This document shows, in pieces, positions 12,870 through 57,401 of a stretch of DNA of 64,000 bases (position 1 is the first letter of the stretch; the number at the start of each line of letters is the position of its first letter). The DNA lies in the NCBI GenBank assembly GCA_965227145.1, contig OZ245730.1:2243661-2307660 (forward strand), written 5' to 3'. The position numbers and the translations under genes were made by a program. The DNA comes from Calditrichia bacterium. Its GTDB lineage: Bacteria > Calditrichota > Calditrichia > RBG-13-44-9 > J075. Below the pieces are notes generated by a model. That model was not told the DNA's origin. It was given only the letters and a program-made list of their open reading frames with translations, and ran no database searches.

Positions 12870-12899
12870 GGCTAAAATTAGAAATCAGGAGATGATCAG

Positions 12900-13475: not shown

Positions 13476-13503
13476 ATATTTTTTTTGTTAAAAATCATTT
13501 TGA

Positions 13504-13545: not shown

Positions 13546-13558
13546 AATGTCGAATTTG

Positions 13559-19604: not shown

Positions 19605-19608
19605 GGCG

Positions 19609-22214: not shown

Positions 22215-22217
22215 ATC

Positions 22218-22829: not shown

Positions 22830-22850
22830 GGATAAAGGGAGATTTTTCGA

Positions 22851-24086: not shown

Positions 24087-24095
24087 AAAATATAA

Positions 24096-24130
24096 AAGGG
24101 CAACTGTTAACAGCAGTTGCCCTTTCGTTT
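24096..24130 (+). terminator. Strong intra-operon hairpin (partial terminator or attenuator) between nqrF and apbE.
   Basis: An 11-bp perfect stem AAGGGCAACTG-ttaacag-CAGTTGCCCTT followed by TCGTTT, a weak U-tract. Confidence 0.5.
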
Positions 24131-24153
24131 AATAAATGTTGTGAAAATGAGAA

Positions 24154-25218
24154 ATGTTGAATATGATCAATCAAAAATGTTCTTTAATTAACAGTGCTAA
24201 GCTATTATTTATACTGACGTTAGTTGTCGCTTTGTTTTTTAGCTGCCAAGAGGATAGCAAAGCAAAGCTTCATTTTATCAGCGGGCGAACGATGGGAACA
24301 AGTTTTTCCATTAAAATTGTGAAAGACAATCGCCCGAATGAGCAGTATGATAAACTTGAACCGGAAATTAATGCATTGTTGGTTGAGGTGAATCGGCAAA
24401 TGTCCACTTATTTGCCCGAATCAGAAATTTCGATGTTCAATGTCCAAAATGATACCGGATGGTTCGATGTTTCCCGAGATTTTGCAAATGTAATGAATGC
24501 ATCCTTAGAAATTTGCCAACAAACAGAAGGTGCGCTCGATATTACCGTTGGTCCTTTGGTTAATTTATGGGGATTCGGTCCGGAAAACCGCCCGACAATT
24601 ATCCCATCCGATGCAGAAATCGCAGAGCGCCAAAATCTGGTTGGATACAATAAAATTTCGGTTCGGCTTGATCCGCCGGCTGTTAAAAAATCGCAAAGCG
24701 GCATGTACTGCGATCTTTCATCTACCGCCAAAGGATTTGGCGTTGATAAAGTTACTGAATATCTTGAATCAGAAAATTTTAGCAACTATTTTGTAGAGAT
24801 CGGCGGTGAGGCGCGGGCAAAGGGAAACAATGAGCGCGGGCAAATTTGGCGGGTTGGTGTTACCTCGCCGGAGCGTGTGGATAATATTCAGAAAGTCGTT
24901 TGGTTGCAAAATAAAGCAATTGCTACCAGCGGCGATTATTTCAACTATTACGAAGTGGACGGCAAACGGTATTCACATACAATTGATCCGCTAACCGGAA
25001 AACCGGTAACGCACAAATTAGCGTCGGTTACCGTGGTTGTGGATAATTGTATGGCAGCTGATGGTTTTGCTACAGCAATAGATGTTATGGGGCCGGAACG
25101 AGGATTTCAGTTCGCATCCGACCGGAAACTTCCAGTATTTATGATCGTTAGAGAAGGCGATACTTTTGTTGAAAAAATGACGCCAGAATTTTCGGAAATG
25201 ATGAAAACAAAACAATAG
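24154..25218 (+). CDS. apbE: FAD:protein FMN transferase (flavin transferase lipoprotein ApbE).
   Basis: A lipoprotein signal (LFFSC), with GRTMGTSF, DITVGPL, DPLTGKP and ADGFATA motifs of ApbE/Ftp. Confidence 0.85.
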   Translation: MLNMINQKCSLINSAKLLFILTLVVALFFSCQEDSKAKLHFISGRTMGTSFSIKIVKDNRPNEQYDKLEPEINALLVEVNRQMSTYLPESEISMFNVQNDTGWFDVSRDFANVMNASLEICQQTEGALDITVGPLVNLWGFGPENRPTIIPSDAEIAERQNLVGYNKISVRLDPPAVKKSQSGMYCDLSSTAKGFGVDKVTEYLESENFSNYFVEIGGEARAKGNNERGQIWRVGVTSPERVDNIQKVVWLQNKAIATSGDYFNYYEVDGKRYSHTIDPLTGKPVTHKLASVTVVVDNCMAADGFATAIDVMGPERGFQFASDRKLPVFMIVREGDTFVEKMTPEFSEMMKTKQ

Positions 25219-29437: not shown

Positions 29438-30511
29438 ATGAGAGCCAAATTTGCTGCATTTATTGCAATTCTATTTTGTTTTACTCCCATTACATATGTG
29501 TTTGCCCAAGGCGAAGCAACCGTGTTGTTCATGATGATCAATGCCGGCGCACGTCAGGGTGGAATGGGCGAAGCTGGTGTTGCTGACCCTAGCGATGCCA
29601 ACGCAATCTATTGGAATCCCGCCGGTTTAGCCTTCGAAGAAAACACCTTTGACCGCTCAACTCAGGGTGAAGCAACCCTGATGCACGTTAACTGGTTACC
29701 TGCATTCAACCTCAGCGATTTGTATTATGATTTTGCTGCCGGAAAATACAACCTTCCGGGTATTGGCACCGTTGGTTTGGGAATCCAGTTCATGAACTAC
29801 GGTGAAAACAACCAGACAGACGTGAACGGAAACCTGATCGGCACGTTTACCAGTAACGAGTTCGCTGTAACCGGCGCCTATGGATTGAAGGTAAAAGAAA
29901 ATCTCGGCATCGGTGTGAACCTGAAATTCATTTATTCCAGATTATCACCGGTTCAGGTCGATATCGAACAGGGTAAAGGCGTTGGTTCTACTTTTGCGTT
30001 GGATATCGGCGCGCTGTATCACCCCGGATTTATGAAACAATTGAGCATCGGTGCAAATCTCGCCAATTTTGGCCCCAAAATTACCTACATCGACAAAGAG
30101 CAGGCAGACCCGATTCCCACCAATTTGCGGGTCGGTATTGCTTACCGGGTGCTGGATTCCGAATTTAACAGGTTTACGGTGCTTTACGACATCAACCGCC
30201 TGATGGTGCCGCGTGATGAAGAGGATCGCAGAGCCAGTTTTGTGTCATATTTGGGAAGCGCCTGGGGTGGCGGCGATTTCTTTAACCGCCTGACGCATTC
30301 GATTGGTGTGGAATATTGGTACACCAATTTGATCGCATTGCGTACCGGTTTCTTTTACGAAGACCCGAGCTACGGCGCCCGTAAGTTTTACACATTCGGC
30401 GGCGGTGTCCGGATTTCATTTTTGGGTGTCGATTTTAGCTATATCCTTGGCACAGTTGAAGATAGCCCGCTTGCTGACACCATCAGATTTTCACTTTCAG
30501 CAATATTCTAA
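29438..30511 (+). CDS. PorV (LptO)-family outer-membrane beta-barrel protein.
   Basis: A signal peptide, then NAGARQGGMGEAGVADPSDANAIYWNPAGLAF, which resembles the PorV ARxGGMGDAG...NPA signature. Alternating-hydrophobic strands throughout. The C-terminus ends in an aromatic residue (RFSLSAIF). Confidence 0.6.
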   Translation: MRAKFAAFIAILFCFTPITYVFAQGEATVLFMMINAGARQGGMGEAGVADPSDANAIYWNPAGLAFEENTFDRSTQGEATLMHVNWLPAFNLSDLYYDFAAGKYNLPGIGTVGLGIQFMNYGENNQTDVNGNLIGTFTSNEFAVTGAYGLKVKENLGIGVNLKFIYSRLSPVQVDIEQGKGVGSTFALDIGALYHPGFMKQLSIGANLANFGPKITYIDKEQADPIPTNLRVGIAYRVLDSEFNRFTVLYDINRLMVPRDEEDRRASFVSYLGSAWGGGDFFNRLTHSIGVEYWYTNLIALRTGFFYEDPSYGARKFYTFGGGVRISFLGVDFSYILGTVEDSPLADTIRFSLSAIF

Positions 30512-30589
30512 ATTATTCGAAACTTGTTTTCGGCGCGATTTTAATTTCAAAAATTGCGCCGTTAAAAATTCAGAACATGGAACAGCGAT

Positions 30590-39689: not shown

Positions 39690-40481
39690 ATGGATAAGCA
39701 GCAGTTGTTGGTCGTTAAAATTGGCGGAAATGTCATCAATGACGATGGTGAGTTGCATCAATTTTTATCAGACTTTGCGGCAATAAGCCAGCCGCGGATT
39801 TTGGTGCACGGCGGCGGAAAACTCGCCACAGAACTTGCCAATAAATTAGAAATTCCGGTTCAAATGATTGATGGACGCCGCATTACCGACGCGGAAATGC
39901 TCAAAATTGTAACCATGGTTTACGGCGGATTAATCAACAAAAACAGTGTTGCGCAATTGCAGAAATTGGGCTGCAACGCTATTGGACTCACCGGTGCGGA
40001 CGCAAATATTATGCTCGCCAAAAAGCGCAGTGGTTGGGATCGCGATTATGGTTTTGTCGGTGATATCGAACGGATTGACAGCGAGATGCTCGCCACATTG
40101 CTGAACAGCGGTTTAACGCCCGTCCTTGCGCCGCTCACCCACGATGGCAATGGAAATTTGCTCAACACCAATGCCGACACCATAGCTGCTGCGGTTGCGC
40201 AGGCGCTGACCGCTAATTTTCGCGTTTCGCTAATGTATTGTTTTGAGAAAAAAGGTGTGCTGGAAAATCCGGAAAATCCGGAATCCGTTATTTCGTCCAT
40301 TAACCCGTTAACTTACAACGATTTAAAAACAAAAGGAATCATCTCGGCAGGCATGATTCCCAAATTAGATAACGCATTTTCGGCAATTGCTGCCGGTGTT
40401 GAAAAGGTGCATATTTGCCACGCAAAGGATTTTCAGAAAATCGCAGGCGGCGAAAGTTCCGGCACCCTTTTGCTGTCCTGA
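39690..40481 (+). CDS. argB: Acetylglutamate kinase (amino-acid kinase family).
   Basis: VVKIGGNVI, ILVHGGG, GRRITDAEMLKIVTMVYGGLINKNSV and LLNTNADTIAAAVA are collinear with E. coli-type short ArgB. Isopentenyl phosphate kinase was considered and rejected. Confidence 0.8.
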   Translation: MDKQQLLVVKIGGNVINDDGELHQFLSDFAAISQPRILVHGGGKLATELANKLEIPVQMIDGRRITDAEMLKIVTMVYGGLINKNSVAQLQKLGCNAIGLTGADANIMLAKKRSGWDRDYGFVGDIERIDSEMLATLLNSGLTPVLAPLTHDGNGNLLNTNADTIAAAVAQALTANFRVSLMYCFEKKGVLENPENPESVISSINPLTYNDLKTKGIISAGMIPKLDNAFSAIAAGVEKVHICHAKDFQKIAGGESSGTLLLS

Positions 40482-40482
40482 A

Positions 40483-41052
40483 TCAGCGAAACAGCGCTTC
40501 GATATCTGAGCGATGATTGAGCATCATCCGCTCCCATTCCAATTTTATCCACGGTGAATAAATATTGCCATTTTTGGCCAGCTCGCGGGTCAATTCATTG
40601 ATGCTAATCCAGCGGGTTTCGGCAATTTCGTTCGGGTTGAGATGAATTTGATCATCCGAACGCCCGATATACACCGCGCACATCTCCCGTTCCGACCCCA
40701 CATTTTTATATTTCGCATGATATTTGAACGTGAACAGGTGCTTCAAATCGGTGGTGATGCCAAGCTCTTCGGCGAGCCTGCGGCTGGTTGCATTCTCCAA
40801 TTCTTCGCCTTTTCGGGGATGACTGCAGCAACTATTTGCCCAAATAAGCGGCCACAAATGTTTCTGCTGGCTTCTTTTTTGGATTAGCAACTCTTTGTTT
40901 TTATTGAATATAAAGATTGAAAACGCACGATGCAAAACACCTTCCCCACGATGGCAGGCCAGTTTGTCCGCATAGCCGGTGATGGTGTCGTTATCATCTA
41001 CCAAAATCAACATTTCGTCGTCGAATGAAACCTGCTTACTGTTTTCTGTCAT
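40483..41052 (-). CDS. idi: Isopentenyl-diphosphate delta-isomerase, type 1 (Nudix).
   Basis: WANSCCSHPRKGEE aligns with E. coli Idi WTNSVCGHPQLGE (catalytic Cys and Glu region), and a Nudix box ATSRRLAEELGI is present. Size 189 aa. Confidence 0.85.
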   Translation of the reverse strand: MTENSKQVSFDDEMLILVDDNDTITGYADKLACHRGEGVLHRAFSIFIFNKNKELLIQKRSQQKHLWPLIWANSCCSHPRKGEELENATSRRLAEELGITTDLKHLFTFKYHAKYKNVGSEREMCAVYIGRSDDQIHLNPNEIAETRWISINELTRELAKNGNIYSPWIKLEWERMMLNHRSDIEALFR

Positions 41053-41079
41053 TTCAAACCTGTGATTAATTTAGCGTTT

Positions 41080-43338
41080 TCAAACAATTTGGGTAACCAT
41101 CGCCCGATACCCGGCTTTGCGCATACTTGCAGCAATTTTTTCTGCCGATTCCGGATTATCCGGCAGAGCGATCATTGCGCCGCCACCGCCGCCTCCGGTC
41201 AATTTTGCGCCGAGCGCACCGCTTTTCCGGGCAATTTCAATCAACTCCTCCAGCTCCCAACTGGAAACCTGAATTGCGTTCAGTAACCCCTGGTTAATGT
41301 TCATCAATTCACCGAGCGTATCCAGTTCGTTTCGGACGATCGCCTTCATCGCGCGTAGCGCTAAAGCGTTGATTTCTGTGAAGATACGTTCGTACATCAT
41401 TTTGTTCTTTTCCCACGAATGCCGGACGTTCGCCACCATTTTTGCCGTCAAGCTTTCCACGCCGGTGATGCCGATGACCAGCGAAATCGGGTTCTCGACA
41501 GCCAGCGGTTTGATGAGCGGCGGTGTTCCGCGCCGGAAAAGAATAAATTTGCCATAAGTTGCCATCGTGTTATCGATGCCGGATGGCGTGCCATGCACAA
41601 TCTGTTCGGATTTGAACGCAAGTTCGTTCACTTTTTCATCGGTGAGATCAAGTTTGTAGTGCTCCGAAAGCGCCCGGACAATCGCCACGGCTAACGCAGC
41701 CGATCCACCCAAACCCATTGCCCGCGGAATGTGCGGGAAAATTTCGATGCGCATGCTTCGGTCATTCAGATCGAGCGTTTTTAAAATCACATCCAGCGAT
41801 TGGTAAATGGAATGCTCGCGTTTGCGGTCTTTCGTGAGCCGTTCCTCCACGCCCCATCGCGGAATAATCAGGTGCACGCCTTCCTTTGCGTCGATCACTT
41901 TGGATTGAATGGCAATTGGAATAGGCGCCGCAATAACGTGGCTTCCGTAAACCGCTGCATGCTCGCCAAACAGAATAACCTTGCCGTAACCGGCGGGCAA
42001 ATCCACCCGGATTTCTGTTTCTTTTTGTCGGGAAACCGGAACAGAGGTTCTGTCGCGCAATTCTTTCACAATTTCCTCGGCTTTCCACACTTTTATTTCA
42101 CCGGTCTCGATGAGCCGGTCAACGACTTCGTCGAACAAATCGGGCGGCGCATCCGCTGCCATCGCAACGGTGCGGGCGTGCAAGGTCATGTGCCCCTGCT
42201 GAATCCCTTCCGTTGAGAGGGCTTTGATCGCTGAAAAATTTTGTGCCAATCCGACCGCGCCCATCACTTCCATCAATTCGCGGGCGCTTTCGACATTCAA
42301 AATGCGCAGCAATGGCGCGACCGATGGGTTCGACTGCACCGGACCACCGACAATCCCCACTTTCAGCGGTAATTTGATGCGTCCGACGAGATCGCCATCA
42401 TCATTTTTAGACCATTTGGTAAGCGATGAGTAATGATTGCCGCGCGCCGCATAGGCATGCACAGACGATTCAATGGCTCGCCAATCGTTGCCGGTGGCAA
42501 TTGCAACCGGATCGATGCCGTTCAAAATACCTTTATTATGCGTGGTTGCGCGATACGGATCAACGAGCGCAAATTCATTCGCCAAAATAATCCCGTCGCG
42601 AACCTGTTCGCCGTTGAATCCCTTTTTGGTTTCGAGAAATTTTGTGGGAATCACACATTCCGCCGTAACCAGCGAACGATCGGCGAGATTGGACAAAATG
42701 CGCAAAAACACTTTGCCGCCGGTGATTTTTTCCACCAGACCGGCAATGCCTTCGCACATTGTGTTGACGAGGTTGGCGCCCATCGCATCACGCGTATCAA
42801 CCAGCAGGTGAACCACAAGCATGTCCCCGCGATACGATGAATTTGGGTGGATAAACACTTCCACATCTTTTGCGCCGCCGCCACGGGCAACCATATTCGG
42901 ATGAAAACTGTTGGCGAGGTTTAAAATTTCTTCTTTATTCTGCAATATTGCTTTTTGGGCGTGCGAAGGATGTTCAATATCCATCACCTGCACCTGCCCG
43001 ATGAGAATGGGCTCGGTGCTTTTTGCCGCAAATCCGCCGTTTTGCCGGACAATTTTCGCAGCCGAACTGACCGCCGCAACAATGGATGGTTCCTCAACGA
43101 CCATCGGCACGATGTAGTCTTTCCCGTTGATCAAAAAATTGAGTCCCAATCCAATGGGCAAACTGAACACGCCGATGACATTTTCGATCATTTTATCAGC
43201 GGCTTCATTATCCAGCACATTTGCCCCGCTGGATAATAATTTGAAGGTATCGGCTGTGATAATTTCGCGTTCTTTCAGAACTTCCAGCCGTTCCTGAACG
43301 GACAATTTGTAAAAACCCGGAATGCGGGAGCGATCCAT
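41080..43338 (-). CDS. Bifunctional fusion of class II HMG-CoA reductase (N-terminal ~430 aa) and mevalonate kinase (C-terminal ~310 aa).
   Basis: The N-terminal half is collinear with Pseudomonas mevalonii HMGR (ENVIG, VEEPSIVAA, DAMGAN, ATGNDWRA, GLAQN). The C-terminal half is a GHMP kinase with the MVK motifs GKVILFGEHAAVYG and PRAMGLGGSAALAVA plus KLTGGGGGG. It is one uninterrupted frame of 752 aa. Confidence 0.8.
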   Translation of the reverse strand: MDRSRIPGFYKLSVQERLEVLKEREIITADTFKLLSSGANVLDNEAADKMIENVIGVFSLPIGLGLNFLINGKDYIVPMVVEEPSIVAAVSSAAKIVRQNGGFAAKSTEPILIGQVQVMDIEHPSHAQKAILQNKEEILNLANSFHPNMVARGGGAKDVEVFIHPNSSYRGDMLVVHLLVDTRDAMGANLVNTMCEGIAGLVEKITGGKVFLRILSNLADRSLVTAECVIPTKFLETKKGFNGEQVRDGIILANEFALVDPYRATTHNKGILNGIDPVAIATGNDWRAIESSVHAYAARGNHYSSLTKWSKNDDGDLVGRIKLPLKVGIVGGPVQSNPSVAPLLRILNVESARELMEVMGAVGLAQNFSAIKALSTEGIQQGHMTLHARTVAMAADAPPDLFDEVVDRLIETGEIKVWKAEEIVKELRDRTSVPVSRQKETEIRVDLPAGYGKVILFGEHAAVYGSHVIAAPIPIAIQSKVIDAKEGVHLIIPRWGVEERLTKDRKREHSIYQSLDVILKTLDLNDRSMRIEIFPHIPRAMGLGGSAALAVAIVRALSEHYKLDLTDEKVNELAFKSEQIVHGTPSGIDNTMATYGKFILFRRGTPPLIKPLAVENPISLVIGITGVESLTAKMVANVRHSWEKNKMMYERIFTEINALALRAMKAIVRNELDTLGELMNINQGLLNAIQVSSWELEELIEIARKSGALGAKLTGGGGGGAMIALPDNPESAEKIAASMRKAGYRAMVTQIV

Positions 43339-43412
43339 TATGCTGCCTCAAGGTTTCGTTAAACCATACGAATAAACAATAAAAATGCTATCCTGCAACA
43401 AAAATAAAAATT

Positions 43413-44477
43413 TTAATCCGATGAAATATGGACACCGCGATGGGCAATGGCCGCATCAATTGGCGAATACCCGGCTTTCGCAAGTGCCTCGGCTGCGGCT
43501 TCGATAATTTCCGGGGAAGTGGCGAATGCGATACCCAAATCGCCGCCACCGGCGCCGGATGGCTTGTAAACCGCACCCGCTGTTTTTGCGATTTCCCGGA
43601 TTGCGGCATGTTCCGGTGTTATAATCGGTGCGATGCTGCGTTCGCCAAGTTCTGTCATTCGCTGAAAATATTCATCAACGCAATCGAGAAATTTATCGAT
43701 TTCAGCATTGGCGATGGCATGCGCGCCTTCGAAAGAAATATCACTCATTGCCGTAAGAATTTTGGAAAAACCGGCGGCATCGCGTTGCCGGAACGCGTTT
43801 ACCCGGCTCACCAGCTCGCGGGTGGAAGCCGGATTACCCGACCAAACCACCAGCATAAACAGATTCTCCGGCAGATCAAGCGGCTCGATCATCGCGTTGA
43901 GCGGATCACCCGGCGCAATTTGATATTGCAACACACCGCCGATTGCGGATGCCGCAATATCCACACCGCTGCCCATTTTGCCCTGCGCCCGGTAATGCGC
44001 CCGAACCGCCTGCTGAAACAATCTGTATTTATCCGCAAACGGTTGATTGGCAAATTCAAAAATGCCGTTTAATAGCGCGATGCTCAGCGCCGCACTGGAG
44101 CCAAGCCCCAATTTTTGTCCGGAATTTTCGAAATAAAACTGGTCTGTTTCCAATAAAAATGAGGATGGCGGCAGCTCAATCGGCGATTCCTGCAAAGCGG
44201 ATTCAATGGCGGCGGAGAAAAAAACGAGCAGGCGACGGGTTGCGTCATCTGTTTCCGGGAATGTCATTTTGCCGCCTTCCAGCAATTCAAACGGCTGTTG
44301 CGAAATGCCCAATCCCGGCGATTCCACCGAATAGTTGCTGTTTTTATTTGCGGAAATATGCACATTCGCGTTTCGATTAATTGCCGCAACAACCGCAGGC
44401 GCGCCTTCCAAAACGGCATATTCGCCCAATAAAATCAGTTTTCCCGGTGCGCTGGATGTTAATTTGTGGGTGCTCAT
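43413..44477 (-). CDS. Phosphomevalonate kinase (ERG8-type GHMP kinase).
   Basis: SAPGKLILLGEYAVLEG matches the streptococcal PMK N-terminal motif. GHMP motif KLGLGSSAA. The start is taken at ATG MSTHKL; the longer TTG-initiated ORF would overlap the upstream gene. Confidence 0.7.
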   Translation of the reverse strand: MSTHKLTSSAPGKLILLGEYAVLEGAPAVVAAINRNANVHISANKNSNYSVESPGLGISQQPFELLEGGKMTFPETDDATRRLLVFFSAAIESALQESPIELPPSSFLLETDQFYFENSGQKLGLGSSAALSIALLNGIFEFANQPFADKYRLFQQAVRAHYRAQGKMGSGVDIAASAIGGVLQYQIAPGDPLNAMIEPLDLPENLFMLVVWSGNPASTRELVSRVNAFRQRDAAGFSKILTAMSDISFEGAHAIANAEIDKFLDCVDEYFQRMTELGERSIAPIITPEHAAIREIAKTAGAVYKPSGAGGGDLGIAFATSPEIIEAAAEALAKAGYSPIDAAIAHRGVHISSD

Positions 44478-44484
44478 TTCAATA

Positions 44485-45873
44485 TCAAATTTCGATGACG
44501 GATTGGCGGTAACGATCGAGCAACGATTCAATTGCAGCGTCGTTTTGTTTGATAAATTTCACGGTTTTTGGCGCGGATTTTTCGCGTTTGGCAAATTCCA
44601 GCGGCTCAAACGCGTCGGTGAACAGGATGCGTTTTAAAATAGATGGCGGTTTGCTGAGATCGAGCGTTTTTGTGGCGTTGTAAAACGCCAGATTCACATC
44701 CAGCGGTCGCCCGTTCTGCAATTGCTCCAGCGATTGAATCGGGCAAAATGAGGAAAACAGCAGCACCGTGGAGCCTTTGTGCAATTCGTAATAGCGATCT
44801 TTCATAAATTGCTCAATCGACAAACCGGATTGCCATTTTGCCGCGCTCACCGAATACAGCATTTGCTGATACTCGTCCAGTTGATAATGCTGTTCGATCG
44901 ATTGATCGACAAAAAATCGCACGCTGAAACCCTGCTCAATAATTGCGTCAATCACCTGCCGGACTTTCTCTTTGTAAATATCCAGTAATAAATCTTTCAG
45001 CGGCAGCGGTTGCCCGCCGGTTGGCGATGCATCGTAAAAACTCGCCAAAACGTTGATATGCGAAACATACGGGAATGTTCGATCGTGAATCCGCACGGTG
45101 AGTTCCCGGCTGCGGGCATAATTTTTCCAGATGATCCGGCGAATATCATCGCCCGGTGCATACTTTTTGTAGTCGAGCAATTCGCCTTTGGCGGTGCGGT
45201 GTTGAATCACTTTTTTGACCGGATCTTCGGAACTTTTGGTGTTGATCAGCACGCCGTTGTTGAGTGTTTTTGGCGGCTCTGTGAACACGCCCAGATGTTC
45301 AGATTCGCGATAGGGAAGGGCAAACAGGTGGAAAAAATCTTCGAAATGTATGATTGCGCTGCGAAACCGGTAATCGCGAACGTGCGGTAACAGCATCTGT
45401 TTGCGACCCAAAATGCCCATTCTTTTGCCGTTTTCGCGGAGTACTTCGTTGACCAAAATTTCGTCGCTGGCCACGTTATCTTCAAAAAAAACAGTCACTT
45501 TCAGAAATCCGAGAAACGGGCGACGGATGCCGTAAATACGCGCTTCGGTATCGACCAGTCCCGGCGTCGGGCTGGTTTGCCGGAACCCCAATTTGATGAT
45601 ATCCTGTTTTTCATCGTCGTCCGTTTCCAAAATACGCTTTTTGAAAATCAGCGATAAATAGGGCAGAATTGTGGTGATCAACCCGAATGCCAAAACCGAT
45701 GTGCAGGCAAACAGCGCCAATATGCTCAACACAATTTGCACCCGCGCCTGATCACCCGGCAAGCTGGAAAATTCGTGATACCAATAATATGAAAATCCGG
45801 CAATGACCAGCAGCAGGACTGCATTTCGCCGGAGAATAAAAAAATTTGAAATATATGCTAATTTTGTTTTCAA
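44485..45873 (-). CDS. DUF58 domain-containing membrane protein.
   Basis: Two N-terminal TM helices, then LLDYKKYAPGDDIRRIIWKNYARSRELTVR, matching the DUF58 signature (YxPGDDxRxIDWK). Confidence 0.6.
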   Translation of the reverse strand: MKTKLAYISNFFILRRNAVLLLVIAGFSYYWYHEFSSLPGDQARVQIVLSILALFACTSVLAFGLITTILPYLSLIFKKRILETDDDEKQDIIKLGFRQTSPTPGLVDTEARIYGIRRPFLGFLKVTVFFEDNVASDEILVNEVLRENGKRMGILGRKQMLLPHVRDYRFRSAIIHFEDFFHLFALPYRESEHLGVFTEPPKTLNNGVLINTKSSEDPVKKVIQHRTAKGELLDYKKYAPGDDIRRIIWKNYARSRELTVRIHDRTFPYVSHINVLASFYDASPTGGQPLPLKDLLLDIYKEKVRQVIDAIIEQGFSVRFFVDQSIEQHYQLDEYQQMLYSVSAAKWQSGLSIEQFMKDRYYELHKGSTVLLFSSFCPIQSLEQLQNGRPLDVNLAFYNATKTLDLSKPPSILKRILFTDAFEPLEFAKREKSAPKTVKFIKQNDAAIESLLDRYRQSVIEI

Positions 45874-46076
45874 TCGTTTGTCGGTCTCATTTAATAATTG
45901 ATTTTTATACGAAAGTAAACGTCGTTAATTTCATGCGGTTTCCAAAAATATGTCTAAAATTTTACGAAAATCTATCATTAATATGTGATTATTGCAAGTT
46001 ATTCGTAAATGTATCTCCATCGCCGATGCACGGTTTTTTGATTTTATTTCAATCGCCAGACACAAAAAGCAACCGT

Positions 46077-49000
46077 ATGATCGAAACGATTAATGACGCT
46101 TTCAGAATACCCTTCCCCAAATTTTTGCGATGGCATTTTTTTGTTACACTGATGTTGGTGCAGCCGGTTTTGGTCGCATCGCCGGACAGCAGCGCGGTTG
46201 TACCACAAATCACTAAAAATATCAAAAAAATCCCCGAATCGGTGTTAAAAGGCATCGTTGCGGCGGGCTACCGCAGGGAAAATTTGCTGGAGCAATTGCC
46301 GCTTACCGCGTTGGAATTACCCCAAATTTATCTGCCGGAAAATGTCGCGCATCCCCGTTTGATCAGCGAAAACCAATTATTTCGGGCACGACAAAACCTG
46401 ATTCGCTCACCGTTTTCCAACTGGTTTTGGTTGTTGAAAATGCAGACTGAACCGTATTTGCAGGATTTTTTTCGACCGGAGCCGTTTTTGCTCCGGCAGG
46501 CGGAAGACATGAAATCGCTGGCATTTTTATACCGGATCACCGGTGAAAAACACTATCTCTCCGCGCTGGAAAGGCTGTTGGCTGCGCTGCCGGAACCACC
46601 GGAAATCGTTAATTTTGAGGGTGGAAAAAATTCCGTCGGTTGGGGCGATTATCTGGAAAGCGCGCAGTCGGCGATTCCGGTTGCTGTGGCGCTCGATCTG
46701 GTTTACGACGATTTATCTGATGAAATAAGGACTGATGCGCTCGGAAAACTTGCGCAAATCAGCCGTCAATTGATGGATGCCGTGTTGCTCGCCGGTAACA
46801 ATAACCACACAACGGTGATGGCAATTGCCATTCTCACCATTGCAATTGTGCTGGATCACCCGGAAAATTTTATTCGAAACGACCGCCAGTCGATGTGGCA
46901 AACCGGACTCAAATTTTTATCGCGATCGCTGGGAATCATCGCGCCGGATGGCGGCTATGCCGAGGGCGTTTATTACGGCAATTTTATTTGCAGCCATCTC
47001 GCCGCGTTTTCTGTGTATTTCGAAAATGTCACCGGTATCGAGCTGTTTCGGCACCCGTATTTGGAACGACTGGTCAATTGGCTGTTGGCAAATAACAAAG
47101 GCAGCGGTCAATATTCAGCGTTCGATGACGCCTATCAAACGCGATTTTTTTATCTGCCGCTGACCATCCCGCAAAGCAGGTTGGCGGGGCAGTGGCGGGC
47201 GCATTTTTTGGCGGAGCCACCGCTGGTTTCCGCCGAAAGAAACGTGGTTGAAGCGTTAGCGATTTACGACGGAAGTGACCAGGTTTTACCAGAATATGGT
47301 TCGCCGAATCGGTTTTTTGTTGAATCCGGCGAGGTGATTTTCCGGGATCGCGCGGTTCAACCCCAATTTTTTGCGGCGTTTTTATCCGAGCGCGAACAGT
47401 GGTTTGCCAGCCGGCATGAGCATATTGACCCGATGAGCGTTGAAATCAGCGCATTCGGCGAAGATTTTATTGTGGATGCGGGGTACGGTAACGCAACTTC
47501 CGATCCCAATCGGCCGTGGTTTTTGTCCGGGAAATCCGGCAACGGCATTTTGGTTGATGGGATGGGAACGTATGAAAACCCGATTTTTGGGGATCCGATT
47601 GCCAGTAAAATCGAACACGCTTTTCAGACAGAAACTGTTGCGGGAGCGAAGTTTTCACACAGCATCGGCGATGTGCAGTTGATGCGCAGCGCCCTTTTCT
47701 CCGGCAATAATATGTTGCTGATGATCGATGAATTTGATGCGCAGCAGCCGCACGATATCCGGCTCAATTTCAATCATCCCGGAAAGCTGCGGCAGCTTCA
47801 CCCGAATGTGCTGGAAATTGTCCAGCCGACGGCGCGATTGAAATTGCTGACGCTGACGTCCGAAAGCGAATCGCCGCAAATTGTGCAGGATTTTGGATTG
47901 TTCACTCCAAAAAGTAAGGGCGTTCCGGTTAACAATTTGCAAATTGGACAGCGCGATGTCCGCAACGGACTTTTTTTAACGGTGATGCTTCCGGAATCCG
48001 GGCAAACGGGTGAAATTCAACTATCGCCGCTGGCGATAAAAAACGGCGTTCGCGGATACCGCATCGCCAACGCAGCGGATGAAACCATCACCGAAGTTGC
48101 CGTTGGCAACGGGAAAATTCTGGAAAGTTCGCAGTGGAAAACCGATGCCCGCGTCGTTTGGGTGCAAATGGCTGCGGACGGGCAGATTTCCGGGTTGCTG
48201 ATCAACTCCGGCACTTTTTTTTCAACGGATGAATTTGAGCTCACATTTGAAATTCCGGTTACGTTGGTGTTAAGCCGCACCGCTTTTGGCTGGCAGGGAT
48301 TTTTGGATGCGCCGCCGGTAAATTTCGAAATGGAAATCAGCGGTATTTTTCCGGGAGCATTCCAATTTCAGCGCCGGGAAGTTGTACCGTTTTTGAGCGA
48401 TGGCGGCACCACAAAACTGTTGTTGAACGGCAGCGGTCCGCTGGAAATCGGGGCAAATTTTCATCCCGTTGAATTGCCGGAACCGTTCCGTCGATCGCCC
48501 GATTTGCTGGGCTGGCTGGCGCGACAGCCCAATTCCGGTGAGGTATATCGCCACTGGCCGGATTATTATCAGATCACCCACCAAAATCAATTGATGCAAG
48601 AATTTCGCAGCGGTGTTGCAACGGCAATTCACCGGTTCAGCGATCAGCAGTTTGGCGATCCGTATGCTATTGATTATACTGCATTTGCGATCTTCGGAAT
48701 TATGCAGCAAAGTTACAATCGCAATTCGCCATCTGCATTTTTTGTGAAAATTCCGCACCGTTATCAATTCGCCGGTGATGCCGGAGATTATCGCTGGAAA
48801 ATTGTCGAAAACGGCAGATTTTCCCTCGACGATCTGGAAATTCATCACTTTCACGCAGATGTTGCGGATGCCGCCGGCAACCGGTTCACCTATCGGCGAG
48901 CCGCAGAATTTGCCGGACATTCCAGCAATTTCGTTAACCTGGAATTGTCTGATCGGTATGAATTTGGATACATGAATGCCGGGCTGGCAGGGCAGGAAAA

Positions 49001-50976: not shown

Positions 50977-51024
50977 TGTTAGAGCGATTTTTTGAAGGTA
51001 TTTAAGACCACAATAATCAGGTTT

Positions 51025-51501
51025 ATGGCAATGCTTAAATTTAGCAAAAAAGTTGAATATGCGCTGATATCGCTGTTATACATGGCGGACCGGAAAAGTA
51101 ACGATCTGATCACCAGCAGGGAGTTGGCCCAGCATTTTAACTTTCCGCAGGAGCTGATTGGCAAAGTATTGCAGAGTCTGGCGCGTTGCAGTTATGTTCG
51201 TTCTGTGCAGGGTGTCCGGGGTGGATATGAGCTGTCCAGCAACCCGGAAAACATTCGGTTAACGCAGGTTATTCATGCTGTTGATGGTCCGATTCGCGTG
51301 GTGAATTGTTTAAATAATCTTGGCGATTGTCAATGTGATCAATTAGATTACTGCAATATTCGTAACCCAATGGAAAAGTTGCAAGTGAAGTTGTTAGAAG
51401 CGCTACACGAAATTACACTGAAGGATCTTCAAGACAATACGATTTCATTTACAAAGCCTATCGAAGCTGCGAAAACGCTATCACAAATACCCTTAACTTA
51501 A
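51025..51501 (+). CDS. Rrf2-family transcriptional regulator (IscR/SufR-like, with candidate Fe-S ligand cysteines).
   Basis: An N-terminal wHTH (KKVEYALISLLYMADRK...ITSRELAQHF) and a C-x-x-C...C cluster (CLNNLGDCQCDQLDYC). Start uncertain: alternatives are a TTG at 50992 or the ATG at 51031. Confidence 0.75.
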   Translation: MAMLKFSKKVEYALISLLYMADRKSNDLITSRELAQHFNFPQELIGKVLQSLARCSYVRSVQGVRGGYELSSNPENIRLTQVIHAVDGPIRVVNCLNNLGDCQCDQLDYCNIRNPMEKLQVKLLEALHEITLKDLQDNTISFTKPIEAAKTLSQIPLT

Positions 51502-51526
51502 CTAAATCCGCTCGAAGGAGACGACC

Positions 51527-51817
51527 ATGACTTACATTATTACCGAACCTTGTATTGGCACATGTGACACCGCCTGTGTTGAAGTTTGCCCGGTAGATTG
51601 CATCTATCCGGCAGACGGAATGACCTTGAGTGAAGAAGACAAAGCGAAAATGATCTCCATCAACGAGATGCTTTACATTCATCCCGAGGAATGCATTGAT
51701 TGCGGTGCCTGCGAACCGGAATGCCCGGTTGAAGCTATTTTCCCGGAAGATGAAGTGCCTGAAAAATGGGCAGATTATATTGCCAAAAACTACAAACGTT
51801 TCGATCTGGAGCCGTAG
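51527..51817 (+). CDS. 7Fe-type ferredoxin (FdxA-like, two clusters).
   Basis: [18 protein letters not shown] and [13 protein letters not shown] parallel Azotobacter FdI. Confidence 0.8.
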
Positions 51818-51982
51818 AAAACGATCGATTCGTATTTTTTTCGATTTGAAAAATATGTGATTTAAGCAGTTGAATTTTATCTGTTTATGTGTTTCCGCCG
51901 GAATCCGGCTCGGTTCTGGCGGAAATCTCCCGGGTGTTGAATGGAAGGAAATTATCATTTACAATCAAAAGGATAGATTAGG

Positions 51983-53428
51983 ATGAGTAACGAACAACAA
52001 ATTATTGAAAGTCGGATAAAGAGCGAATACAAATGGGGTTTCGTTACCGATATCGAAAATGATACGGTTCCCCAGGGTCTCAATGAGGACATTGTTCGCA
52101 TGATATCCTTCAAAAAAAACGAGCCGGAATGGATGCTGAATTGGCGGTTGAAAGCTTACAAACATTGGCTGACCATGAAAGAGCCGCGTTGGCCGAACGT
52201 CAAATATTCACCGATTGATTATCAGGATGCGTATTATTACGCAGCCCCAAAACAGACAAAAAATCCGGAAAGCCTGGACGAGGTTGATCCGAAGCTGATC
52301 GATACATTTAACAAACTTGGTATCTCGCTGGAAGAGCAAAAATTGCTCACAGGTGTTGCGGTTGATGCCGTCATCGATAGCGTTTCTGTGGCAACAACGT
52401 TCAAAAAAGAGCTTTCCAAACACGGCATTATTTTTTGCTCAATGTCCGAAGCGATTATCGATCACCAAGAATTGGTGCAACAATATCTCGGCAGCGTTGT
52501 GCCGTATGCCGACAACTTTTTTGCCGCGCTAAACTCCGCAGTTTTTACAGATGGCTCGTTTTGCTACATTCCGAAAGGCGTTCGCTGCCCGATGGAATTG
52601 TCCACTTATTTCCGCATCAACGCGGCAAAAACGGGACAGTTTGAGCGCACGCTGATTATCGCGGAAGAAGCTAGCACGGTTAGCTATCTGGAAGGCTGCA
52701 CCGCGCCGATGCGCGATGAACATCAGTTGCACGCCGCAGTTGTAGAAATTTATGCGCACAAAGATGCCACCGTCAAATATTCAACCGTTCAAAACTGGTA
52801 TCCCGGCGATGAGCAGGGCAAAGGCGGCATCTACAATTTTGTGACGAAACGCGGTTTGTGCGACGGCGCAAACAGCAAAATCAGCTGGACGCAGGTGGAA
52901 ACCGGCTCAGCAATCACCTGGAAATATCCCAGCGTGATTTTGAAAGGTGACAACTCAACCGGCGAATTTTACTCCGTCGCGTTGACCAACAATTACCAGC
53001 AAGCCGATACCGGCACCAAAATGATTCACGTCGGTAAAAACACCAAAAGCACCATCATTTCCAAAGGCATTTCCGCTGGCAAAAGCCAGAATTCCTATCG
53101 CGGATTGGTGAAAGTGGTGAAGGGCGCAACCAACGCCCGCAACTTCTCGCAATGCGATTCGTTGCTGATTGGCGATCGATGCGGCGCACACACCTTCCCG
53201 TATCTGGAAATTGGTGATAAATCCGCCAAAGTGGAGCACGAAGCAACCACTTCGAAAATCGGTGAAGACCAGATTTTCTATTGCAACCAGCGCGGCATCA
53301 GTACGGAAAACGCCATCGGATTGATCGTAAACGGTTTCGCGAAAGAGGTTTTCCGCGAACTGCCGATGGAATTTGCGGTCGAAGCACAAAAATTACTGGC
53401 GATCAGCCTCGAAGGTTCCGTTGGATAA
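51983..53428 (+). CDS. sufB: Fe-S cluster assembly protein SufB.
   Basis: 481 aa with a conserved SufB core ([24 protein letters not shown]). Confidence 0.9.
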
Positions 53429-53514
53429 TTTATGGTGCAAACGGTTGTTTTAAATGAACTTGAAAACAAAATATTATAAGATAAATACGTAAAAGGAATT
53501 GAGGAAGAATAAAA

Positions 53515-54270
53515 ATGCTCGAGATTAAAAACTTACATGCGTCAGTCGAAGGTAACGAAATTTTGAAAGGCCTCGATCTGAAAATCAATCCCGGCGAAGT
53601 GCATGCGATTATGGGACCGAACGGCTCCGGCAAAAGCACGCTCGCAAATGTGCTGGCGGGACGCGAAGAATATGAAATCACAGATGGCCAGGTTGTTTTC
53701 GAGGGCGAGGATTTGCTGGAAATGGGACCGGAAGATCGTGCCCACAACGGGCTTTTTCTGGCGTTTCAATATCCGGTGGAAATTCCCGGTGTCAGCAACG
53801 TCAATTTTTTGAAAACGGCCGTGAATCAAATCCGCGAAGCCCGGGGCGAAGAAAAACTCGACGCAATGGAATTTCTCAAATTGATTCGCACCAAGCTCAA
53901 AACGGTTGATATGGAAGAAAAATTTCTCCACCGCTCGGTTAACGAAGGTTTTTCCGGTGGCGAGAAAAAACGCAACGAAATTTTCCAAATGGCAGTTTTG
54001 GAGCCGAAACTGGCAATTATGGACGAAACTGATTCCGGGCTGGATATCGACGCGCTGAAAATCGTTGCAAACGGCGTCAATCAAATGCGGGATAGCAAAC
54101 GCTCCTTTTTGGTGATTACCCACTATCAGCGATTGCTGAATTACATCGTTCCTGATGTTGTTCACGTGCTCGTGAATGGCAAAATCGTGGAATCGGGTGG
54201 AAAAGACCTGGCACTGCGGCTCGAAGAACACGGTTACGACTGGGTGAACAACGAAACTGTCGGTGTCTGA
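53515..54270 (+). CDS. sufC: Fe-S cluster assembly ATPase SufC.
   Basis: Walker A GPNGSGKST, an ABC signature FSGGEKKR and a Walker B LAIMDETDSGLD. Confidence 0.9.
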   Translation: MLEIKNLHASVEGNEILKGLDLKINPGEVHAIMGPNGSGKSTLANVLAGREEYEITDGQVVFEGEDLLEMGPEDRAHNGLFLAFQYPVEIPGVSNVNFLKTAVNQIREARGEEKLDAMEFLKLIRTKLKTVDMEEKFLHRSVNEGFSGGEKKRNEIFQMAVLEPKLAIMDETDSGLDIDALKIVANGVNQMRDSKRSFLVITHYQRLLNYIVPDVVHVLVNGKIVESGGKDLALRLEEHGYDWVNNETVGV

Positions 54271-54327
54271 TTTTGGTAATTGCAATTTGATTGATAAACG
54301 TCGAAAAAATGAAGGTAAACAATAATT

Positions 54328-55659
54328 ATGAGCAGTATAAAAACGGATGCCAGTGATATGCAAAACTGGTATGTTTCGAATTTCAAAGCATTTGAAACAA
54401 GCCTGAACGGGAGCAGCGAACTGCCGTTTCATCAGGTGAGAAAATCGGCTTTGGAAGCGTTCAACAAACTGGGTTTCCCCGGACGACGGGACGAGGAGTG
54501 GAAATACACTTCCGTTTCCCCGATTTTGAAACACAAGTTTCAATTGGATTTACCGTCCAATAAATTGTCTGCCAAAGATATTGAAAAATATGCATTTAAA
54601 GCACTTTCGAAAAACCTGGTGGTGTTGATCAACGGTCATTATTCACCGGAATTTTCAAATTATGAAGCGCCGAAAGGCGTTATTGTGGAAAGCCTTTCGG
54701 GTGCAACGGAAAAGCATGCGAGCCTCGTCAATAAATATCTGGCGAAAATTGCGGACTTCTCGGAAGATCCGTTTACCGCGCTAAATACCGCGTTTGCCAA
54801 TGATGGCGTTTTCATTCACATTGCGGACAATGCTGTGATTGAGCAGCCGATTCACCTGCTGTATATATCCGATGCGCGTGAGAAAGAATTTTACGCGAAT
54901 CCGCGAAATCTGGTCATCGCCGGGAAGCATTCGCAAGCCAAAATCGTTGAAAAATATGCGGCAATCGATGCGGAAAATGTGTATTTCAACAACGGCGTGA
55001 CCGAAGTTGTGATGAACGCTGGCGCAAAACTGGATTACGTTCGCGTGCAGGACGAGGCGTTAAATGCGTTTCACATCAAAACGCTGCAAGCGCATCAGGT
55101 TCGCGACAGCAATTTTACGCTGGTGAATCTGGATATGGGCGGCAAATTGGTGCGCAATAATTTCAATTTGAAACTCGATGACGAACATTGCGAAGGTCAT
55201 TTGATCGGTGCATACATGGCAACCGGTCGTCAGCACATCGACAACCATACGGCTATCGATCATGCCAAACCGAATTGCTACAGCAACGAAGTTTACAAAG
55301 GCATTTTGGGCGGAAAATCCCGCGGTGTGTTCAACGGGAAAATTTTTGTGCGCCAGGATGCTCAAAAAACCAACGCGTATCAAAATAACAAAGCGCTGTT
55401 GTTGACGGATGATGCGGTCATCAATTCCAAACCGCAGCTGGAAATTTTTGCCGACGATGTGAAATGCAGTCACGGCGCAACGGTCGGGCAGCTGGATGAT
55501 GAATCGCTGTTCTATTTACGTTCGCGCGGCATTCCCGCAGATGTTGCATATTCCATGCTGCAATATGCATTTGTATTGGAAGCGCTGGATTATGTCACCA
55601 TCGATGAAATTCGCGAAGAGCTGGACGAGCAGTTGCTCGAACATTTTCGTAAGCTATAG
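54328..55659 (+). CDS. sufD: Fe-S cluster assembly protein SufD.
   Basis: A SufB paralog, 443 aa, with a C-terminal beta-helix region (KCSHGATVGQLDDE). Its position follows sufC. Confidence 0.85.
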   Translation: MSSIKTDASDMQNWYVSNFKAFETSLNGSSELPFHQVRKSALEAFNKLGFPGRRDEEWKYTSVSPILKHKFQLDLPSNKLSAKDIEKYAFKALSKNLVVLINGHYSPEFSNYEAPKGVIVESLSGATEKHASLVNKYLAKIADFSEDPFTALNTAFANDGVFIHIADNAVIEQPIHLLYISDAREKEFYANPRNLVIAGKHSQAKIVEKYAAIDAENVYFNNGVTEVVMNAGAKLDYVRVQDEALNAFHIKTLQAHQVRDSNFTLVNLDMGGKLVRNNFNLKLDDEHCEGHLIGAYMATGRQHIDNHTAIDHAKPNCYSNEVYKGILGGKSRGVFNGKIFVRQDAQKTNAYQNNKALLLTDDAVINSKPQLEIFADDVKCSHGATVGQLDDESLFYLRSRGIPADVAYSMLQYAFVLEALDYVTIDEIREELDEQLLEHFRKL

Positions 55660-55686
55660 TTTTTATTTTAGATAGAGGTTTATTTA

Positions 55687-56952
55687 ATGGCAAATGCCAC
55701 GGTGGCCGATTTGAAAAAACCGGCTCAAAAAGTAAGTTTTGATGTGGAAAAAATCCGGTCGGATTTCCCGATTCTTCAGGAAAAAATGCACGGAAAACCG
55801 CTGGTTTTTCTGGATAACGCCGCATCCACCCAAAAACCGAATGTGGTGATCGACACGATCGCCAATTACTACCGTTCGGAAAATGCCAATATTCACCGTG
55901 GTGTGTATCGCCTCAGCGAAATCGCGTCTGAAAAATATGAAGCTGCCCGGAAAACGGTTCAGCAATTTATCAACGCAAAATCAGAACGCGAAGTCATTTT
56001 CACCGGCGGAACAACTGACAGCATCAATTTGGTTGCCGCATCTTTTGGGCAAGCGTACATCAAATCCGGTGATGAAATTATCATTACCGGGATGGAACAC
56101 CATTCGAATATTGTTCCGTGGCAGCTGTTGTGCGACAGAACCGGCGCAAAATTGCGCGTTTTGCCTATCGATGAAAATGGTGATTTGGTGATGGAAAAGC
56201 TGCCGGAAATGATCAACGATCGAACCCGGCTGATTTCTGTGGTTTACATTTCCAACTCGCTCGGCACGGTCAATCCGGTACGGGAAATTATCGATCTCGG
56301 GCATGCGCAGGATGTCCCTGTTTTGGTCGATGCGGCGCAAGCCGTGCAACACCAATTGCTGGATGTTCAGCAGCTTGATTGCGATTTTCTGGCGTTCTCC
56401 GGGCATAAAATTTATGGTCCCACCGGCGTTGGTGTGCTCTACGGAAAAGAAAAGTGGTTGGAAAAAATGCCGCCGTATCGTGGCGGTGGCGACATGATAT
56501 TAACTGTATCTTTTGAAAAAACGACGTTTAACGAACTCCCGTATAAATTTGAAGCCGGCACGCCAAACATTGCCGGCGTTATCGGATTGGGCGAAGCGAT
56601 CAAATATGTTGAAAATATCGGGTTGCCAAACATTGCCGAATACGAACACGCGCTGCTGGATTACGCGACTGAACGGTTGACATCGATTCCTGAATTACGT
56701 ATCATAGGAACTGCGCGGGAAAAATCTGCCGTTATCTCTTTTGTTGTTGAGGGCGTTCACCCGCACGACATCGGCACCTGGGCGGATCGCGATGGCATTG
56801 CTGTCCGCACCGGACATCACTGCACACAGCCGGTGATGGATTTTTTCGAGGTTCCGGCAACCACCCGGGCATCGATCGGCATTTACAATAACCGCGCCGA
56901 TTTTGACGCGTTGGTAAATTCTCTGAAAGAAATGATTAAGGTGTTTTGTTAA
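55687..56952 (+). CDS. sufS: Cysteine desulfurase SufS (group II).
   Basis: FLDNAASTQKP, the PLP lysine in SGHKIYGPTG and the catalytic RTGHHCTQP. Confidence 0.9.
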   Translation: MANATVADLKKPAQKVSFDVEKIRSDFPILQEKMHGKPLVFLDNAASTQKPNVVIDTIANYYRSENANIHRGVYRLSEIASEKYEAARKTVQQFINAKSEREVIFTGGTTDSINLVAASFGQAYIKSGDEIIITGMEHHSNIVPWQLLCDRTGAKLRVLPIDENGDLVMEKLPEMINDRTRLISVVYISNSLGTVNPVREIIDLGHAQDVPVLVDAAQAVQHQLLDVQQLDCDFLAFSGHKIYGPTGVGVLYGKEKWLEKMPPYRGGGDMILTVSFEKTTFNELPYKFEAGTPNIAGVIGLGEAIKYVENIGLPNIAEYEHALLDYATERLTSIPELRIIGTAREKSAVISFVVEGVHPHDIGTWADRDGIAVRTGHHCTQPVMDFFEVPATTRASIGIYNNRADFDALVNSLKEMIKVFC

Positions 56953-57401
56953 TGGACGAATTGCGCGAGCTGTATCAACAGGTGATTCTCGATCACAACC
57001 GTAATCCGAAAAATTATGGCAAAATTGATTGCAATCATGAGGCGGAAGGATTTAATCCGCTCTGCGGTGATAAAATAAAAATTTACGTTCAGGTGGATGG
57101 CAACATCATTACCGATGTGCATTTCGAAGCTGCCGGTTGCGCTATTTCCAAAGCATCCGCATCGTTGATGACGGTTGCGTTGAAGGGCAAAACGATTGCG
57201 GAATCACAGAATATTTTTTCCCATTTTATCGGAATGATTACCGGCAAATCAAACGCTAATGCCGAAGAAGATTTGCTCGGCAGCCTGATTGTGCTCGCCG
57301 GAGTCCGGGAATTTCCGTCGCGTGTAAAATGTGCCGGTTTAGCCTGGCATGCGTTCAACGCAGCCCTGAGCAGCGAAGAAAAAACGGTAACTACAGAATA
57401 A
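56952..57401 (+). CDS. sufU: SufU/IscU-like sulfur acceptor scaffold.
   Basis: NPLCGDKI, AAGCAISKAS and a C-terminal CAGLAWHA. Its start overlaps the sufS stop (TAATG). Confidence 0.8.
   Translation: MDELRELYQQVILDHNRNPKNYGKIDCNHEAEGFNPLCGDKIKIYVQVDGNIITDVHFEAAGCAISKASASLMTVALKGKTIAESQNIFSHFIGMITGKSNANAEEDLLGSLIVLAGVREFPSRVKCAGLAWHAFNAALSSEEKTVTTE

Follow-up and report, generated by a model that had tools for sequence, protein, structure and literature searches.

A class II HMG-CoA reductase and a mevalonate kinase in one open reading frame of a Calditrichia bacterium: a probable bifunctional enzyme of the mevalonate pathway

The fused reading frame and its two modules

The stretch of DNA analysed here (64,000 nucleotides of contig OZ245730.1, assembly GCA_965227145.1, from a Calditrichia bacterium; hereafter the window) contains, at positions 41080–43338 of the minus strand, an open reading frame (ORF) of 752 codons. 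It starts with ATG, with the sequence GAGG lying about 9 nt 5' of this codon, has no internal stop and ends with the stop codon at 41080–41082. Its product, 752 residues long, consists of a class II HMG-CoA reductase (HMGR) module (42055–43338, minus strand; residues 1–428, C-terminal flap domain included), an inter-domain linker (42001–42054, minus strand; residues 429–446, DRTSVPVSRQKETEIRVD, about 18–19 residues) and a mevalonate kinase (MVK) module of the GHMP fold (41083–42000, minus strand; residues 447–752). Pfam recognizes HMG-CoA_red at residues 13–388 (382.7 bits, covering profile positions 1–368 of 368), GHMP_kinases_N at 513–595 and GHMP_kinases_C at 663–744, and the domain scores of both halves are far above the level expected by chance. 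No thiolase family is found among the Pfam and NCBIfam matches of the fused protein, in which the HMGR begins at residue 1. Judging from the sequence, the product of the ORF is very probably a true bifunctional enzyme that serves the classical mevalonate pathway in the biosynthetic direction. Both halves were judged against the curated cut-offs of the NCBIfam equivalogs, and residue conservation was read from the 120 best homologues, aligned with MAFFT.

The N-terminal half scores 412.5 bits against the class II HMGR model TIGR00532 (cut-off 259.95; residues 1–388) and only 55.9 bits against the class I model TIGR00533, for which the cut-off is 441.8. Residues 5–426 of the HMGR from P. mevalonii (PDB 1qax, 428 residues) are collinear with residues 4–428 of the query (428.8 bits). 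Because the alignment reaches residue 426 of the 428, the reductase half is complete, including the flap, the C-terminal domain that bears the catalytic histidine in class II HMGRs. The catalytic residues E83, K267, N271, D283 and H381 of the P. mevalonii enzyme correspond to E83, K269, N273, D285 and H383 of the query, all invariant in 120 of the 120 homologues. The position of D146 in the P. mevalonii enzyme, a determinant of NAD specificity, is occupied by a histidine that is likewise invariant in the 120 homologues. Foldseek gave target-normalised TM-scores of 0.85–0.94 for this half against 1qax, 6eeu and 6p7k. Stand-alone class II HMGRs (MvaA of P. mevalonii, 1qax; the enzymes of Delftia, 6dio, Burkholderia, 6p7k, and S. 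pneumoniae, 5wpj) are homologous to the N-terminal half, and with the P. mevalonii type it shares about 50% identity over 425 collinear residues, a catalytic set of Glu, Lys, Asn, Asp and His, and the flap. Whereas the stand-alone enzymes end at about residue 428, the fused protein continues into the linker and a complete mevalonate kinase. By homology, the N-terminal half would reduce (S)-HMG-CoA to (R)-mevalonate using two NAD(P)H.

The C-terminal half scores 250.5 bits against the mevalonate kinase model TIGR00549 (cut-off 163.05; residues 452–725), and the other GHMP models of NCBIfam (galactokinase, homoserine kinase, phosphomevalonate kinase (PMK), IspE and others) give at most 78 bits, far under their own cut-offs. 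The top matches to this half in the PDB are all mevalonate kinases, the first being that of L. major (2hfs, 173 bits, query residues 449–739), followed by the enzymes of Methanosarcina, S. aureus and S. pneumoniae. All three motifs of the GHMP family can be recognized, as can HG-PSG-D; they read GKVILFGEH (containing K453), GLGGSAA (residues 542–548), HGTPSGID (containing D589) and KLTGGGGGG (residues 712–720). Residues K453, E459, H460, G542, G544, S546, E578, H582, S586 and D589, as well as K712, T714, G715 and G717–G720, are invariant in the 120 homologues. The catalytic lysine and aspartate, matched by motif only, are presumably the equivalents of rat K13 and D204. Target-normalised TM-scores from Foldseek are 0.79–0.86 against stand-alone mevalonate kinases. 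The latter (L. major 2hfs, Methanosarcina mazei 6mde/4hac, S. aureus 2x7i, S. pneumoniae 2oi2) are about 30% identical to the fused kinase half and have the GHMP fold and motifs in common with it. They are separate polypeptides of about 300–330 residues, whereas the N-terminus of the fused kinase is covalently joined to the HMGR flap. The C-terminal half would, from its homology, phosphorylate mevalonate with ATP to mevalonate 5-phosphate.

A preliminary description of the window had read the ORF as one uninterrupted frame of 752 residues in which a complete class II HMGR, collinear with the P. mevalonii enzyme, is followed without a stop by a complete mevalonate kinase. The ORF listing and the domain matches bear this out, the alignment of the reductase running through the flap domain and the kinase lying above the cut-off of TIGR00549 with PDB matches that are all mevalonate kinases. 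The two motifs it had quoted are found at residues 452–465 (GKVILFGEHAAVYG) and 712–720. It had also raised the question of whether the C-terminal half would better match a non-kinase domain of the GHMP fold; it does not, all other GHMP models lying far below their cut-offs.

Homologues, linker and protein product

In a search of 5.8 billion proteins, each of the 120 best matches to the fused protein is 715–769 residues long, carries the same three Pfam domains and is 64–100% identical to it. There are thus at least 120 full-length homologues, from assemblies deposited at NCBI, JGI, ENA and in Logan. The exact sequence of the window protein was not found in the database, and the entry listed as 100% identical (P0001) differs at two positions (T412S and A736T). 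With one genome taken per species, at least 570 stretches of DNA encode relatives, and the best 80 of these all span residues 1 to about 751 of the query. We fetched 84 such loci, and in all of them a single tblastn segment crosses the junction with the frame open; the junction peptides were inspected directly at ten of the 84. The fetched loci include isolates (Wenzhouxiangella sediminis XDB06; Wenzhouxiangella sp. 15190, XN79A and EGI_FJ10305; Dyella flava DHOC52; Marinobacter gelidimuriae BF04_CF-4) and a closed 3.4-Mb chromosome of a Wenzhouxiangellaceae. The preliminary description had called for an independent assembly to be checked for a stop or frameshift between the halves and for a full-length search for other proteins of the same architecture. 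Neither stop nor frameshift occurs in any of the 84 loci, and the architecture is that of all 120 best matches.

A sister strain (L081; Logan SRR23272279, an independent assembly) matches 22 kb of the window collinearly, with 96.5% identity. Its ORF differs from that of the window by 54 substitutions (97.6% nucleotide identity) and by no insertion or deletion, and 52 of the 54 substitutions are synonymous. The two that are not are T412S and A736T, while the three that fall in the linker are all synonymous. With two non-synonymous changes among 54 and no indel, this is the pattern of purifying selection along one continuous frame, linker included.

The linker itself is rich in E, K and A and is much less conserved than the modules that it joins: mean column conservation over residues 428–446 is 0.24, whereas the HMGR half reaches 0.79 and the MVK half 0.76. 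Its length also varies, the spacing from W418 to K453 ranging from 28 to 42 residues with a mode of 34. An AlphaFold2 model of the monomer, built from 50 sequences, has a mean pLDDT of 80 with both domains well folded, and pLDDT falls below 50 at residues 431–445. Neither Foldseek nor sequence searches found a PDB chain that covers both halves. The kinase would be tethered to the end of the mobile flap of the reductase by a flexible, poorly conserved and charged linker. Since the MVK is joined to the last helix of this flap, flexibility of the linker is probably required for flap closure.

Data on a protein product come from the closed genome of Wenzhouxiangella AB-CW3, for which proteomes were recorded under three conditions. 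Here the entry abcw3|01229, annotated as a 757-residue 'hydroxymethylglutaryl-CoA reductase', was detected in all three growth conditions at abundances of 0.0022, 0.0078 and 0.0188 (PMC7691419, Table S1). Its neighbours are a diphosphomevalonate decarboxylase of 326 residues, a 350-residue protein annotated 'GHMP kinases N terminal domain' and an IPP isomerase of 199 residues (PMC7691419). The GHMP kinase, which stands at the PMK position, was assigned to no pathway in that annotation, and the authors did not comment on the double size of abcw3|01229 or on a fusion (PMC7691419). From its length, its gene context and the genus, we infer that abcw3|01229 is an orthologue of the fusion.

Operon context and alternative readings

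The fused gene is flanked by co-directional genes of the same pathway. Upstream, separated from it by a gap of 74 nt, lies a probable PMK gene (43413–44477, minus strand) that encodes 354 residues from M19 of a 372-residue ORF, this start being the one chosen by the gene caller in L081; the product carries GHMP_kinases_N and GHMP_kinases_C. Its best NCBIfam match is the phosphomevalonate kinase model TIGR01220, and because the score (143.5 bits) falls below the cut-off (165.7), we grade the gene as a probable PMK only. It does sit at the PMK position of the conserved operon described below. Downstream, 27 nt 3' of the stop codon of the fusion, a gene for a type 1 isopentenyl-diphosphate delta-isomerase (IDI; 40483–41052, minus strand; 189 residues) scores 177.9 bits against NF002995 (cut-off 127) and 160.7 against TIGR02150 (cut-off 105.8). 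An IDI gene follows the fusion in nearly all of the related loci that were fetched. In most of these relatives (Calditrichota, KSB1, Gammaproteobacteria) the operon has the order MVD-PMK-[HMGR-MVK]-IDI, where MVD is diphosphomevalonate decarboxylase (TIGR01240, 315.8 bits). The conserved operons of the relatives hold neither a separate mevalonate kinase gene nor a second HMGR, so that the fused domain is the only mevalonate kinase of the operon. The PMK and IDI neighbours, together with the MVD of the relatives, argue for biosynthesis and not for breakdown of mevalonate.

In the window, in L081 and in a further locus (L002), MVD is absent from the position upstream of the PMK gene. That position is taken in the window by a 462-residue ORF (44485–45873, minus strand) with a weak DUF58 match only, which ends 7 nt before the PMK start, and the same holds for L081. 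The classical genes of a mevalonate operon that are present in the window are those for the PMK-like protein, the HMGR-MVK fusion and IDI. A scan of positions 40000–46500 for promoters and terminators gave counts not above those of shuffled controls. On the far side of IDI, 1 nt from its stop codon and tail-to-tail with it, lies an amino-acid kinase gene (39690–40481, plus strand). This gene was considered as an isopentenyl phosphate kinase, which would have pointed to an alternative mevalonate route, and ruled out as such, as the archaeal model for that enzyme gives 22 bits only. It encodes an acetylglutamate kinase (argB, TIGR00761, 205.4 bits; cut-off 151.3), and ArgF-like and ArgD-like genes are also found within the window.

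Several points weigh against the reading of the ORF as a bifunctional biosynthetic enzyme. No enzyme assay was found for any member of the fusion family. The AlphaFold2 model has a pTM of 0.54, so that the packing of the two domains against each other is not confident and the model gives no structural support for channelling. The AB-CW3 proteome reports abundance at the level of the protein and does not show that the polypeptide is intact. A tblastn search with two MVDs from related loci found no MVD in the 64 kb of the window, and no HMG-CoA synthase was found by Pfam among about 45 ORFs of the window. The full pathway is thus not shown for this organism, and both enzymes must be encoded elsewhere in its genome. 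Thiolase and MVD likewise gave no Pfam match in these ORFs. Finally, the enzyme that the HMGR half most resembles is the catabolic, NAD-dependent one of P. mevalonii, and its name in the databases is 'degradative'.

A fused gene might still yield two separate proteins, through internal initiation or through cleavage of the linker, in which case only expression would be coupled. Such an outcome would be in keeping with the disorder and poor conservation of the linker, with a GTG codon at residue 445 and with published proteomics that give protein-level abundance only. We consider it unlikely, however: no Shine-Dalgarno-like sequence precedes codon 445, the linker has stayed in frame and free of stops over hundreds of millions of years while its length changed by whole codons, and triple HMGR-MVK-IDI fusions exist (see below), which indicates that covalent joining is tolerated or favoured. 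That one half is catalytically dead or regulatory, for instance a kinase half sensing mevalonate or downstream diphosphates, is highly unlikely, given that, in either half, every residue for catalysis and nucleotide binding is the same in all 120 homologues and that the conserved operon includes no further mevalonate kinase or HMGR. The idea draws on the occurrence of pseudoenzyme domains in fusions and on the role of mevalonate kinases as points of feedback regulation.

The reductase could also be thought to run catabolically, from mevalonate to HMG-CoA, as in P. mevalonii, whose HMGR is the nearest solved homologue (428.8 bits), and the top NCBIfam model does bear the name 'degradative'. But the label comes from the model that happens to match best, and the P. 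mevalonii enzyme was the basis on which that model was built. The P. mevalonii HMGR is catabolic and NAD-specific, whereas the fused protein is encoded in a biosynthetic operon, with PMK, IDI and, in the relatives, MVD as neighbours, and has the invariant histidine in place of D146, a determinant of NAD specificity. A catabolic system of the mvaAB type (HMGR and HMG-CoA lyase) is not matched either: there is no Pfam match to HMG-CoA lyase in the roughly 45 ORFs, and the neighbours of the fused gene in the window are PMK-like and IDI genes instead. Moreover, a mevalonate kinase joined covalently to the reductase would draw on the same mevalonate as a catabolic reaction. A catabolic direction is therefore scarcely credible. 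Least of all does the fusion look like an artefact in which a sequencing or assembly error erased a stop or shifted the frame between two neighbouring genes: this is a reasonable worry for a lone metagenome-like contig, for which nothing positive speaks, and its probability is negligible in view of the junction being open in 84 of 84 loci, which were assembled independently, belong to several phyla and include cultured isolates as well as a closed chromosome, the full architecture of 120 of the 120 best matches, and the sister strain with no indel and 52 of 54 substitutions synonymous.

Distribution, related fusions and possible function

The fusion proteins of Calditrichota, KSB1, Gammaproteobacteria and Acidobacteriota are 60–68% identical. 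For lineages so far apart this value is high, and it suggests that the compact operon as a whole has been passed on horizontally. In a tblastn search of the PLSDB plasmids, 61 records with a stand-alone HMGR and none with the fusion were found, so that carriage of the fusion by plasmids has no direct support. Among 1.84 billion representatives of clusters at 50% identity, 31 of the best 150 clusters span the junction, about 19 of them at full length, with identities down to 34–47%. A neighbour-joining tree of 123 HMGR domains places 19 of the 24 fused domains in one clade, together with three stand-alone sequences and one that is unclassified; P0133 stands alone at the midpoint root, and P0134, P0137, P0139 and P0144 lie elsewhere. 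As this tree carries no support values, the number of fusion events cannot be inferred from it.

Two of the related loci have surroundings of their own. In a gammaproteobacterial metagenome-assembled genome (DASSJY010000004.1; L083, positions 3117–15179) the MVD-PMK-fusion-IDI operon lies inside an apparent hopanoid gene cluster. Upstream are genes for a squalene synthase, a squalene-hopene cyclase, a PNP_UDP_1 protein and an epimerase, downstream those for a radical-SAM/DUF3463 protein and glycosyltransferases, and polyprenyl synthases flank the region. This arrangement suggests that the transferred mevalonate operon feeds hopanoid synthesis in that genome. In a metagenome-assembled genome of the Calditrichota (L082, positions 6020–6679) a gene for an IspD-family cytidylyltransferase is found 1.2 kb upstream of the mevalonate operon. 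It could reflect coexistence of the MEP and mevalonate pathways, or it could encode an unrelated sugar-alcohol cytidylyltransferase.

The class II HMGR is a hub of natural fusions, as judged from database proteins, of which some may be gene-calling artefacts. They include HMGR-MVK-IDI triple fusions (P0122 and P0123, 952 and 928 residues), in the first of which all three equivalogs are above their cut-offs, an MVK-HMGR fusion in reverse order (P0142, 704 residues) and fusions of a PMK-like domain with HMGR (P0149, P0152, P0180). Further HMGR fusions (P0154, P0159, P0163 and P0181) involve polyprenyl synthase, squalene synthase or cyclase-like domains: HMGR-squalene synthase-epimerase, of 1253 residues, HMGR-polyprenyl synthase-squalene synthase, of 1453 residues, HMGR-polyprenyl synthase and HMGR-cyclase-like. 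In the triple fusions the gene order of the window, the fusion followed by IDI, is merged into one polypeptide. P0122, P0123, P0142 and P0149 thus recombine the same modules with an extra module or in another order, and none of them is encoded in the window.

Of the bifunctional proteins described so far, MvaE of Enterococcus faecalis comes closest. It is a fusion of acetoacetyl-CoA thiolase with a class II HMGR (HMGR domain, PDB 7m1z/7m3h), and its HMGR part is homologous to the query (293 bits). In MvaE the thiolase is N-terminal to the HMGR and the two catalyse the non-adjacent steps 1 and 3, whereas the fused protein has a C-terminal kinase, consecutive steps and no thiolase domain. IspDF of the MEP pathway is likewise a natural fusion of two enzymes of isoprenoid precursor synthesis and is widespread in bacteria; it differs from HMGR-MVK in pathway, in folds and in joining non-consecutive steps. 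The preliminary description had not known the HMGR-MVK arrangement as a described bifunctional enzyme, and this holds: no description of a natural HMGR-MVK fusion was found in the full-text literature, with most subscription journals outside its coverage. A review of the diversity of bacterial isoprenoid pathways (J Bacteriol 2026, PMC13001223) lists IspDF as the only fusion, and Hoshino & Gaucher 2018 trimmed fused partner sequences before building trees and said nothing further on fusions. The arrangement is not rare: many genomes in the public databases encode it, named after one of the two enzymes, and precomputed domain tables show it plainly. HMGR-MVK is a real, widespread and uncharacterised architectural variant, made of textbook parts by a common evolutionary process. 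What seems to be new is the architecture and its commonness, as both enzymes are textbook ones. Many public genomes name the fusion 'HMG-CoA reductase, degradative' only, and because of this name pathway reconstructions can miss the mevalonate kinase and wrongly suggest mevalonate breakdown.

On a single polypeptide, HMG-CoA would be converted to mevalonate and further to mevalonate 5-phosphate, with the reductase and kinase activities fixed at a ratio of 1:1. The fusion would place an ATP-driven and effectively irreversible kinase beside a readily reversible reductase of the P. mevalonii type, and would thereby pull flux towards isoprenoid synthesis. Local capture of mevalonate and a compact, easily transferred operon are further possible gains. 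The fused enzyme may channel mevalonate, as the preliminary description had proposed, and any benefit would probably arise through proximity rather than through a physical tunnel. Since each parent enzyme is a homodimer, the fusion may form higher-order assemblies. Going further, one may tentatively picture the fusion as an uncharacterised bifunctional family that is the standard mevalonate layout in the sampled Calditrichota, in KSB1 and in several gammaproteobacterial and acidobacterial lineages, in which the dimeric modules build a higher-order assembly, mevalonate is passed directly from site to site and the class II reductase is driven one way, and which forms the core of mevalonate 'megasynthases' (HMGR-MVK-IDI, HMGR-prenyl synthase-squalene synthase); taken as a whole, this extended picture is doubtful. 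The fusion offers a natural test case of whether a reversible reduction becomes coupled to an irreversible phosphorylation when the enzymes of successive steps are joined, and it shows how a partner on the mobile catalytic flap of a class II HMGR is tolerated. HMGR-MVK and HMGR-MVK-IDI are also ready-made compact parts for engineered isoprenoid pathways.

The other genes of the window are those of an ordinary chromosome and include HslUV, RpoN, Mdh, PdxST, Na+-NQR, SUF, type IX secretion and C25 peptidase genes. This content, taken with the best genome matches, is in keeping with a bacterium of the Calditrichota (Calditrichaceae). The operon of the Na+-translocating NADH:quinone reductase (18255–25218, plus strand) looks complete, with NqrA-F and ApbE, and the SUF iron-sulfur assembly operon (50992–57401, plus strand) has an Rrf2 regulator ahead of it. 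Type IX secretion cargo and machinery, PorV included, are encoded at 13559–17611 (minus strand) and 29438–36823 (plus strand). This set contains a 1350-residue C25 (gingipain-like) peptidase with a C-terminal FlgD_ig domain, a 1009-residue protein with a Por_Secre_tail sorting domain, and a 1063-residue protein with Peptidase_MA_2 and weak PD40 and DPP IV N-terminal matches, the counterpart of which in L081 has Tricorn-family matches. The type IX secretion and peptidase genes fit a protein-degrading lifestyle of the Calditrichota.

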